Shown here piece after piece: positions 15,382-17,069 of a DNA stretch of 64,000 nucleotides. Position 1 is the first letter of the stretch. Each line of letters begins with the position of its first letter. The position numbers were made by a program, and so were the translations under genes. A model generated the notes under the pieces. The model worked only from the letters and a program-made list of their open reading frames with translations. It was not told where the DNA came from and searched no databases. Origin of the DNA: an uncultured bacterium (GTDB lineage: Bacteria > Patescibacteriota > Saccharimonadia > UBA4664 > SCTI01); assembly GCA_963721685.1 (NCBI GenBank), contig CAVRJJ010000001.1, positions 303,950 through 367,949 on the forward strand, read 5' to 3'.

Positions 15382-15906
15382 TTAGGCGAGCTGAAGTTCA
15401 TCAAGTGAAGTAATCCGGGGAACGCTGGCCGGAGCTTGCTTGTCACTATACTTTTCACCGGGACGCACTAAATGGAACATTTCAATTTTTGAGTTCGCGG
15501 CAACGAGCGGCTTAAACGACGAGGCGTTGTCATCCACTAAGACTACCTTTTCGAAGATGCCTTGAATTGGGCCAACATCGACCGTTAGCATATCATCCTT
15601 GCCTGGCTTAACCCCCGCCGCCAAAACAAAGCCTTTGTTCATCGTTGTGACTTGAAACGGCAGGTTTGCCAGAGCCGGGGCAAAACCAAACTTACGGTGC
15701 TGCCAGTCAATCCCGCCCTGCAAGTCTTGGCCTATGATTGTCGCCTGGCTAATAATGGCCGGTGTTACCTCTGGCGGCAACCGCTTAAGCAGGTTGGCGG
15801 CATCATCATATAGATAATCAAGCGCCAAGGACGCGTTTTCCTCATCATGCATAAACCGGCTTAGGTTGAAGGCAGTCCGGTCAAAATCTAACAGCAATAG
15901 AATCAT
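15382..15906 (-). CDS. HAD-superfamily hydrolase-like protein (short).
   Basis: The N-terminus MILLLLDFDRT matches HAD motif I (DxDxT) and VLVDDN is a motif IV-like; it overlaps the upstream gene by 4 nt. Confidence 0.45.
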   Translation of the reverse strand: MILLLLDFDRTAFNLSRFMHDEENASLALDYLYDDAANLLKRLPPEVTPAIISQATIIGQDLQGGIDWQHRKFGFAPALANLPFQVTTMNKGFVLAAGVKPGKDDMLTVDVGPIQGIFEKVVLVDDNASSFKPLVAANSKIEMFHLVRPGEKYSDKQAPASVPRITSLDELQLA

Positions 15907-17069
15907 GAAAAGTAAATCCTCATTAAAGCCCGGGCTAAGTGGTCGCCGTCGTGGCGAATTAAACTGCGCTGGTATTCCAGCAGCACATCATTCTGGTTCT
16001 TTTCGGCGGCACCTGCCAGCAGTGGCTCACCAATGGCTTGGTAAGGCTGCTTTTTTAATACACTTGGGTCAAAGTCGACCGGCAGCTCACCATTCCGCAA
16101 GTAGCGTTTGGCTAGCGCCGGGGTGGGCATGGCAGTGTTGTAAATCACGTAATCAAATAACTGCTTTCCATCCATGTGGCGGCTTAGCTCATTCAAAAAC
16201 TCATGCACCTGCATGCCTTTTGTCTTATCCGGCTTATTTACCAGATTGGCCACATATACCTTAGGAGCCTTGGTGCGTTCCAGGGCCTTTGCCATGCCGT
16301 CGGGCAATAGTACCGGGATAATTGATCCATACAAATCACCAGGACCCACGATTACCATGTCGGCGGACATAATTGCCTGGACCGCCTCCTTATTCACCTT
16401 TGCCCGCGGTTCAAGCTGCAACAAGGGACGTTCGCCGGCAAAATCATGGGTTTGTATGTCCCGCTCATGGGAAAGCCGGGTGCCGTCCGCCATAACCGCC
16501 GACAAACGAATATCACTGGTGGTAACCGGGATTACCCGCCCTCCAACCTGTAAAATTTGTTCCGCGATTTTAACGCCCTCACCAAATCCTCCGGAAATTT
16601 TTTCTAACGCGGTTAAAAATAAATTTCCAAAGGAATGGCCGCGAAACGTACCTTCCTCAAAACGGTAATTAAACAGCTCACGCATATACTCTGGTGTATT
16701 GGAAAGAGCTACCAAACATTGCCGGACGTCACCCGGAGGCAGCACGCCAAGCTCATCCCGCAGTATTCCAGTAGAGCCGCCGTCATCACTCATGGTAACT
16801 ATGGCCGTCAAGTTGCCAACGTAGGGGCGCAGGGCCGAGAGCAACATAAAACTCCCCGTCCCTCCCCCTATAACCACCGCTTTCACTCCGGCAGATGTGG
16901 GCGGACCCGACGCGGCGGGCAGCTGCCCGTCCGCCCGCACAATTAACTGTCCGTCTTGAACAAGCAGCTGGGCACGGTCAACCAGTCCGGTTTGCTGCAG
17001 TAAGGCTTTAGGAATTCTAATACCTTTGGAGTTGCCAATCTTAATAATGTCGGCTTCACTACCCTTCAT
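15903..17069 (-). CDS. yvcK: YvcK/CofD-family (gluconeogenesis factor, UPF0052) protein with an N-terminal AbrB/MazE-type swapped-hairpin domain.
   Basis: The core VVIGGGTGSFMLLSAL...TMSDDGGSTGILRDELGVLPPGDVRQC is YvcK-like. The first roughly 60 aa (IKIGNSKGIRIPKALLQQTGL) resemble the MazE/AbrB DNA-binding domain. Confidence 0.75.
   Translation of the reverse strand: MKGSEADIIKIGNSKGIRIPKALLQQTGLVDRAQLLVQDGQLIVRADGQLPAASGPPTSAGVKAVVIGGGTGSFMLLSALRPYVGNLTAIVTMSDDGGSTGILRDELGVLPPGDVRQCLVALSNTPEYMRELFNYRFEEGTFRGHSFGNLFLTALEKISGGFGEGVKIAEQILQVGGRVIPVTTSDIRLSAVMADGTRLSHERDIQTHDFAGERPLLQLEPRAKVNKEAVQAIMSADMVIVGPGDLYGSIIPVLLPDGMAKALERTKAPKVYVANLVNKPDKTKGMQVHEFLNELSRHMDGKQLFDYVIYNTAMPTPALAKRYLRNGELPVDFDPSVLKKQPYQAIGEPLLAGAAEKNQNDVLLEYQRSLIRHDGDHLARALMRIYFS

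Follow-up and report, generated by a model that had tools for sequence, protein, structure and literature searches.

The locus described here raises the question of why a gene for YvcK/GlmR should open with what looks like the DNA-binding half of an antitoxin. It lies in a 64,000-nucleotide stretch of contig CAVRJJ010000001.1 (GenBank assembly GCA_963721685.1, positions 303,950 to 367,949 of the forward strand) from an uncultured bacterium of the Saccharimonadia; this whole stretch is called the window below. In Gram-positive bacteria YvcK/GlmR directs carbon into peptidoglycan precursors, by a mode that differs between species and is debated (PMC6171935, PMC7525490, PMC10128056, PMC10986989). 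Typical YvcK homologues, the nearest Saccharimonadia relatives included, have about 330 amino acids (aa) and start a few residues ahead of VVIGGGTG. The first-pass annotation of this DNA had taken the N-terminal 60 or so residues of the window protein for an AbrB/MazE-type domain fused in frame to YvcK, and had called the architecture unusual. All of this was borne out: the gene is a single ORF (open reading frame) of 388 codons, and the fusion is genuine and conserved and is no artefact. Judged from its sequence, it is a new domain architecture made of known parts that is present in a small group of Saccharimonadia (TM7). We consider it rather likely that it represents a domesticated antitoxin module, in which the promoter, operator, ribosome-binding site (RBS) and DNA-binding domain of a mazE gene have been grafted onto yvcK and repress their own expression. 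The annotation had also invoked UDP-GlcNAc sensing and the localization of penicillin-binding proteins, a link that comes from the Firmicutes literature. The parts of the gene are as follows.

15903..17069, minus strand: fusion gene for a MazE/AbrB-type domain, a linker and a YvcK/GlmR domain, 388 aa (single ORF; homologues P0001 to P0006 at 100% coverage; many independent contigs)
17073..17076, minus strand: Shine-Dalgarno-like AGGT, 4-7 nt 5' of the ATG at 17069 (read from the sequence)
16932..17057, minus strand: MazE/AbrB-type domain, residues 5-46, predicted beta-beta-alpha-beta-beta (PDB chain 7d2n_E, hidden Markov model [HMM], AlphaFold2 [AF2] model, dN/dS)
16884..16931, minus strand: Pro/Ser/Ala-rich variable linker, residues 47-62, in the place of the toxin-binding tail of standalone MazE (alignment, dN/dS, AF2)
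15906..16883, minus strand: YvcK/GlmR (CofD-like) domain, residues 63-388 (PF01933, TIGR01826, Foldseek match to 2hzb, phmmer match to 2ppv)

The YvcK part of the protein is complete and ordinary, as indicated by profile scores, fold and the closest PDB match. Pfam CofD (PF01933) matched residues 65-350 with an E value of 1e-86, the whole protein scored 290 bits against TIGR01826 ("UDP-GlcNAc-binding protein YvcK"; cutoff, 196), and phmmer aligned it to 2ppv with an E value of 6e-56. A monomeric AF2 model was built from 79 YvcK homologues and had a mean pLDDT (predicted local distance difference test) of 87.6; an alignment enlarged with standalone MazE sequences was discarded, MAFFT having set those sequences within the YvcK region. 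When the model was superposed on crystal structures of the YvcK family (2hzb, 2o2z and 2ppv), the target TM (template modeling) scores were 0.89-0.93, the Foldseek match to 2hzb having an E value of 1e-32, a target TM score of 0.93 and 34% identity. Residues Y323 and R372/H373 were invariant among the 79 homologues and stood at plausible positions. They may correspond to Y265 and R301, the UDP-sugar-site residues of Bacillus subtilis GlmR (PMC7525490). In the databases the only precomputed domain for the fusion proteins is PF01933, and their source names are plain YvcK or cofD-like, which is why the architecture was missed by routine annotation.

The N terminus of the fusion protein reads MKGSEADIIKIGNSKGIRIPKALLQQTGLVDRAQLLVQDGQLIVRADGQLPAASGPPTSAGVKAVVIGGGTG. 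When all PDB chains were searched with phmmer, residues 7-46 matched 7d2n_E, deposited as an AbrB/MazE/SpoVT family DNA-binding protein, with an E value of 2.7e-7; a literature search on PDB entry 7D2N found nothing. Chains of Escherichia coli MazE matched weakly (E values, 0.05 to 0.2), and the alignment set N13 and R18 of the fusion against MazE N11 and R16, the key DNA-contact residues of that protein (PMC4333400). N13, S14, R18 and K21 were invariant in all six fusions. Against 5.8 billion proteins, residues 1-61 had matches that were all about 80 aa long and mostly carried PF04014 or the name antitoxin MazE, at 49-63% identity. The 62-aa N terminus, run without filters against 1.84 billion representatives, gave 362 matches with E values below 1e-3. 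Among the best 150 of these 362, nearly all were short standalone proteins; the one long protein, P0246, was a spurious repeat match, and P0145 was a frameshifted fragment of the P0005 type. In the other direction, an HMM of the six fusion N termini matched standalone mazE products and PF04014-annotated antitoxins with E values of 1e-16 to 1e-8, and the signature IGNSxGIRIPK was common to the fusion domain and these relatives. The AF2 secondary structure (strands 8-10 and 18-20, helix 21-25, strands 33-38 and 41-46) is the half-barrel topology of AbrB/MazE/SpoVT. Past this domain the standalone relatives carry on with PRxGWxEAF... tails, and there the fusion has its linker, modeled as coil with a pLDDT of about 60, followed by YvcK. 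By homology, then, the N-terminal domain belongs to the MazE family and corresponds to the N-terminal half of a MazEF antitoxin whose toxin-binding tail and toxin have been lost.

Conservation across assemblies showed that the fusion exists as such. A full-length search returned six clusters at 90% identity that spanned 100% of the query, with identities to the fusion of 100% (P0001), 88-89% (P0002 and P0003), 65% (P0004) and 60% (P0005 and P0006). These clusters came from differing samples and assemblers and from more than 50 contigs; that of P0005 alone had 9 members on dozens of contigs. No stop codon interrupted the ORF in any of the six divergent clusters. Within residues 7-46, 22 of the 40 positions were invariant across the fusion proteins, and the linker was variable. 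The ratio of nonsynonymous to synonymous substitution (dN/dS; Nei-Gojobori, pairs with unsaturated dS) was 0.04-0.28 for the N-terminal domain and 0.34-0.94 for the linker; the domain is thus under purifying selection. For P0003, carried by locus L008, one source names "Candidatus Polarisedimenticolaceae" (Acidobacteriota); its sequence and synteny are Saccharimonadia-like, and the contig is probably mis-binned.

The start codons point the same way. The first-pass annotation had suggested checking for an alternative GTG start with an RBS. A GTG does exist at V62 (16884-16886), found only in the window, L007 and L008, where in-frame GTG codons stand at residues 62 and 65; a GGA abuts it directly, with no properly spaced Shine-Dalgarno sequence. 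GTG62 was therefore rejected as the main start, being unconserved and wrongly spaced. AGG, GGAG or GAGG stands at normal spacing ahead of all six annotated fusion starts. L001 lacks an in-frame start from residue 39 to 65, and L006 lacks one (ATG, GTG or TTG) from residue 2 to 73, so that the YvcK of L006 is translatable solely as a fusion. The retention of the N-terminal domain in six clusters from many assemblies, its low dN/dS and the lack of an internal start in L006 together establish the fusion as genuine. Relatives that start at the VKAVVIGGG position behind unrelated upstream sequence, which the annotation had named as counterevidence, were indeed found (L010, L011, L211, L213 and L214), but they do not refute the fusion, because the six clusters hold the N-terminal domain under purifying selection.

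The main evidence for a DNA-binding role, as read from the nucleotide sequence, is a candidate operator and promoter at 17089-17126, outside the interval 15382-17069 that the first-pass annotation had covered.

17089..17109, no strand assigned: candidate operator TGTAATTACA-A-TGTAATTACA; it holds two GTAATTAC palindromes, each perfect over 8 bp, whose centers lie 11 bp apart
17098..17126, minus strand: sigma70-like promoter TTGATT-17-TACAAT (consensus scan; consensus match only)

The 53 bp that separate the fusion gene from the gene upstream of it contain the candidate operator, whose end is 19 bp ahead of the ATG. It is the sole such site in the window, where the total match count was equaled in 1 of 100 shuffles. 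Where the two operator repeats meet, they form the putative -10 hexamer, and the putative -35 element shares bases with the upstream gene's stop codon. Each fusion locus, in all six clusters, had a tandem motif of this kind 12-30 bp 5' of the start codon: it was exact in L007, L008, L009, L001 and L002, had TTAT instead of TTAC in the first half-site of L006, and had a degenerate first half-site, GTATGTAC, in L003 and L132 (P0005 type). The motif was kept though the upstream gene varied between a galU-like gene and an unrelated divergent gene. The geometry TTGAyy-17-TAYWAT was kept in 5 of the 6 fusion loci (15 nt in L006). Upstream of the non-fused yvcK genes of L010, L011, L211, L213 and L214, the tandem motif was absent in all five cases, and L011 and L214 have the synteny of the window yet lack it.

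Two independent directions of search tied the motif to mazE genes. In a motif-first scan, GTAATTAYNATGTAATTAC was looked for in one genome per species (185,579 species), which gave at least 119 loci. Among the matches listed, the motif ended about 1-32 bp before a standalone mazE-like gene of 64-93 aa in 52 of 119; the fusion loci themselves were absent from these matches. The products of these genes matched the HMM of the fusion N-terminal domain with E values of 1e-16 to 1e-8 and had IGNSxGIRIPK, and the gene that followed encoded a PemK/MazF toxin of about 109 aa (PF02452; E value, 1e-29). The taxa included Leptospira, Acidobacteriota, Cyanobacteria, Nitrospirota, Campylobacterota, Bacteroidota, Patescibacteria and others. 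A protein-first scan of metagenomes with the N-terminal domain alignment gave 80 loci, of which 77 held standalone genes and the other 3 belonged to fusion types that were already known. Of the standalone loci, 73 had enough upstream sequence to be scored for both palindromes with at most 3 of 16 mismatches within 100 nt; the motif was present at 47 of these 73 and in 0 of 1,460 control windows of the same loci. Since the motif-first and protein-first searches agree, the motif is, on sequence grounds, a conserved operator-type element of this mazE subfamily, and it accompanies the predicted DNA-binding domain across phyla and in the fusion. A two-block repeat lies immediately upstream of 76 of 79 AbrB-linked MazF modules, and the operator and antitoxin N-terminal domain have been argued to form one evolutionary module (PMC3879964). 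A divergent standalone subgroup (L184-L206, for example, L190, L192 and L201-L205; LVPIGNSKGIRIPKALLQKYG..., tail KLSWEDTY) had no tandem site beside the start codon; one copy of ATGTAATTAC stood some 60-78 bp 5' of the domain instead.

How such a gene could have arisen and could work may be pictured as follows. The 5' part of a mazEF operon, consisting of promoter, tandem-palindrome operator, RBS and the MazE N-terminal domain of about 45 aa, would have become joined in frame to the start of yvcK, with a flexible linker bridging the MazE head and YvcK and with the MazE tail and the mazF toxin gene gone. The N-terminal domain would dimerize and bind the pair of GTAATTAC palindromes overlapping the -10 box. 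With the -10 box occluded, the fusion protein would repress its own gene and, where present, the coupled HAD-like gene downstream; from the arrangement of these sites, it probably does repress its own promoter. In E. coli MazEF, the N-terminal domain alone binds DNA, the tail takes no part, and MazF raises the affinity (PMC4333400), and the YvcK/GlmR of Firmicutes binds UDP-sugars and shifts its oligomeric state with the ligand (PMC7525490). By analogy, repression might be tuned by YvcK oligomerization or by UDP-sugars, and, more speculatively, an oligomerizing, UDP-sugar-binding YvcK domain might fill the co-repressor role of MazF in cis. A stronger version, which we put forward tentatively and regard as doubtful, would make the fusion a one-component UDP-sugar-responsive transcription factor in which YvcK bridges or stabilizes two MazE-type dimers at the tandem operator, and its occupancy by UDP-GlcNAc or UDP-Glc governs how strongly the fusion represses its own operon and, perhaps, other genes for the cell envelope.

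Several observations weigh against the domesticated, self-repressing module. The Pfam profile MazE_antitoxin stayed below its 24.7-bit cutoff (18.5 bits for residues 1-64 and 14.3 bits for the full protein), and the pLDDT of the N-terminal domain in the monomer model was 51-77. AbrB/MazE domains are obligate dimers, and low values are expected when such a dimer is modeled as a monomer. The exact 19-mer had no mazE-like gene nearby in 67 of 119 loci among the matches listed, so that the motif is not exclusive to the family. The -10 assignment is a consensus match, and in many standalone loci the motif has the opposite orientation. The -35 element matched in at least 4 of 6 positions at 17 of 46 standalone loci, versus about 11% of controls, an arrangement less regular than at the fusion loci. 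Further operator sites and a standalone MazE acting in trans were sought within the 64 kb of the genome that the window covers. Finally, the relO operator of E. coli, which is bound by the unrelated ribbon-helix-helix (RHH) antitoxin RelB, has the near-identical half-site TTGTAATTACAA, so that sequence alone does not identify the binding protein.

Many of the mazE-less motif loci were multicopy occurrences in metagenome-assembled genomes (MAGs) of Bacteroidales, in some of which the 19-mer GTAATTACAATGTAATTAC had several copies per genome and no MazE-like ORF within 700 bp. Examples were L012, L018, L052, L082 and L089 in one Bacteroidales MAG and L023, L065, L071, L073 and L077 in one Rikenellaceae MAG. 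The 19-mer stood at a fixed position within conserved flanks in L022/L023/L052/L095/L125, in L063/L073 and in L046/L066. These copies suggest that the 19-mer is part of a repeated element or is bound by a different protein.

Other explanations were weighed against the self-repressing module. The obligate dimerization of AbrB/MazE domains, the variation of the YvcK/GlmR oligomeric state with ligand (PMC7525490) and the fact that the center of the motif doubles as a -10-like hexamer would all suit an N-terminal domain that is only an oligomerization handle or a structural relic, the half-barrel serving to dimerize YvcK and the palindromes being an inherited promoter with no autoregulation. Such a relic would not account for the retention of both 8-bp palindromes beyond the needs of a -10 box at 60% protein identity and saturated synonymous sites, nor for the invariance of the DNA-contact residues N13, S14, R18 and K21 in the six fusions, and we regard it as unlikely. 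Much less credible still is the view that the locus is really a mazE fragment plus a separate yvcK gene, or that YvcK is started internally at V62 or V65, behind 60 nonfunctional codons. The in-frame GTG codons at these residues in the window, L007 and L008, near which the nearest non-fused relatives begin, would fit that view, but they are set against six divergent clusters from many independent assemblies without one stop codon, an N-terminal dN/dS far under 1, the stretches of L006 (residues 2-73) and L001 (residues 39-65) that offer no start, and a Shine-Dalgarno sequence that is properly spaced at all six annotated starts and not at GTG62.

The first-pass annotation had described the N-terminal module as DNA binding or antitoxin-like. 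The upstream operator favors the former; the latter appears unlikely, the tail and the toxin having been lost. The nearest relatives of the domain are genuine mazE genes with PemK toxins, and it could be imagined that the fusion still acts as an antitoxin or decoy that neutralizes or titrates a MazF-type toxin from elsewhere in the genome, the host or a phage. MazE, however, neutralizes MazF through its C-terminal tail and not through its DNA-binding part (PMC4333400), and in the fusion the linker and YvcK take the place of the PRxGWxEAF... tail. A search for PemK-like ORFs found none in the 64-kb window and none next to a fusion gene. Because of this replacement and this absence, the fusion is, as far as gene content and domain content indicate, neither an antitoxin nor part of a toxin-antitoxin system, and we give a residual antitoxin or decoy role very little credence. 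The domesticated, self-repressing module thus remains our preferred explanation.

The history of the fusion was approached through a quick neighbor-joining (NJ) tree of YvcK domains. Every fused protein fell inside one Saccharimonadia clade, in three groups interleaved with non-fused proteins: P0001-P0003; P0004, sister to the non-fused P0014; and P0005 with P0006, grouped with the non-fused P0015. A fusion clade of single origin was not supported by this tree, given the interleaving. The junction and the operator were alike in all three fused groups, and the sequence ahead of yvcK in the non-fused relatives L010, L011, L211, L213 and L214 showed no remnants of the 5' module. The pattern suggests either a single gain with several later losses or a 5' module that spread laterally.

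The genes that flank the fusion gene directly are as follows.

15382..15906, minus strand: 174-aa gene with HAD-like motifs DFDRT, NKG and DDN (4-nt ATGA overlap with the fusion stop codon; translationally coupled)
17123..17971, minus strand: GalU-like sugar-1-phosphate nucleotidyltransferase, upstream neighbor (PF00483, E value of 2e-17; TIGR01099, 105 bits versus a cutoff of 327)

The 4-nt overlap with the downstream gene was as the first-pass annotation had stated. Orthologues of 172-221 aa were found 3' of yvcK, with stop codon overlaps of 1-4 nt, in fused and non-fused Saccharimonadia loci; L001 lacks this partner gene. The label of HAD hydrolase given by the annotation fared less clearly. 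The residues D7-F-D9-R-T11, N90-K91-G92 and D125-D126-N127 were invariant in 7 orthologues and fit HAD motifs I, III and IV. The window protein itself had no Pfam, NCBIfam or PDB-profile match, and its AF2 model (3 sequences; pLDDT, 55) gave only nonsignificant Foldseek matches. One orthologue had subthreshold matches to NIF (21.3 versus 21.8 bits) and HAD_2 (E value, 0.014). It is therefore plausible from its motifs that the 174-aa protein is HAD-like.

The GalU-like gene lies directly upstream of yvcK in the window, L001 (4099-4944), L007 (2486-3346) and the non-fused L214 (3-386); the pairing is absent from L003, L006, L010 and L011 and is outside the conserved module. The position of a UDP-sugar-forming enzyme beside a UDP-sugar-binding protein may have functional meaning. 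Neither yvcJ/rapZ nor whiA was found adjoining yvcK in the window or the related loci, nor among the scanned 270- to 350-aa ORFs of the window. MraZ, another AbrB-fold DNA-binding protein, is encoded at 13686-14054 (minus strand), 1.3 kb from the fusion operon, and heads a dcw-like cluster with MraW (12407-13333), a penicillin-binding protein (10144-11889) and an FtsQ-like protein (5837-6655). Other cell wall genes of the window encode FtsX (32247-33182), an M23 peptidase (33931-34944), a CHAP/PcsB-like protein (30916-31965) and MreC (53241-54047). A PBP2-like ORF of 297 aa at 51286-52179 (region 50709-52179, minus strand) matches the PBP_dimer profile from position 79 onward, ends inside the transpeptidase domain and is overlapped by an ORF at 50709-51314; the region may contain a penicillin-binding protein gene that is split or frameshifted, or it may have been misassembled.

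A literature search found no description of a YvcK-AbrB fusion or of YvcK in Saccharibacteria. Bacteria of the candidate phyla radiation (CPR) have reduced genomes and few transcription factors. In the explanation preferred here, a part of a toxin-antitoxin system would have been exapted, the module of operator and N-terminal domain (PMC3879964) having been transplanted onto a non-toxin gene in these reduced-genome bacteria. With a predicted DNA-binding head and an identifiable 21-bp target, the fusion is a natural YvcK variant that allows a simple in vitro test. If the UDP-sugar-responsive version were true, it would represent a toxin-free, metabolite-gated form of the cooperative repression found in toxin-antitoxin systems, and the antitoxin cassette of promoter, operator and DNA-binding domain would be seen to serve a housekeeping gene as a portable, reusable regulatory front end.

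The closest known arrangements differ from the fusion in instructive ways. SpoVT consists of an AbrB-type N-terminal domain and a C-terminal GAF sensor domain and acts as a transcription factor. Like SpoVT and the transition-state regulators AbrB/Abh, the fusion would combine a predicted DNA-binding head of the swapped-hairpin type with an oligomerization or ligand-binding domain at the C terminus; unlike SpoVT, its partner is a CofD-like YvcK domain instead of GAF, and its MazE-subtype head keeps the antitoxin operator. With MazE of MazEF/PemIK (Kis-Kid; PF04014, AbrB-linked MazF subfamily) it shares a homologous N-terminal domain, the IGNSxGIRIPK signature, the N and R contact positions and the same tandem-palindrome operator just 5' of the start codon (PMC3879964, PMC4333400). 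It differs in having neither toxin gene nor toxin-binding tail and in the covalent joining of the head to a YvcK domain of 326 aa. The relO operator of E. coli relBE, bound by RelB, has half-sites TTGTAATGACAT and TTGTAATTACAA and overlaps its promoter (PMC2812701). These half-sites are nearly identical to TGTAATTACA, and the candidate operator likewise overlaps a putative promoter, but the spacing in relO is 12 bp instead of 11 bp and its binder is of the RHH and not the AbrB fold; the resemblance could be convergence on a sequence that overlaps the -10 box or coincidence.

With YvcK/GlmR of B. subtilis, Listeria and Enterococcus and the mycobacterial CuvA, the fusion shares a full-length domain that scores over the TIGR01826 cutoff and has the fold of 2hzb and 2ppv. 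Elsewhere glmR "seems always associated" with yvcJ/rapZ and whiA/yvcL (PMC7525490), whereas the fusion yvcK is beside neither and has galU-like and HAD-like genes as its neighbors. The yvcJ-glmR-yvcL operon of Enterococcus faecalis is autoregulated by the DNA-binding YvcL/WhiA (PMC10986989), and it resembles the locus proposed here in that glmR would be controlled by a DNA-binding protein of its own operon. The difference is that the regulator in E. faecalis is a separate WhiA-family protein, whereas here it would be an antitoxin-derived domain fused to GlmR itself.

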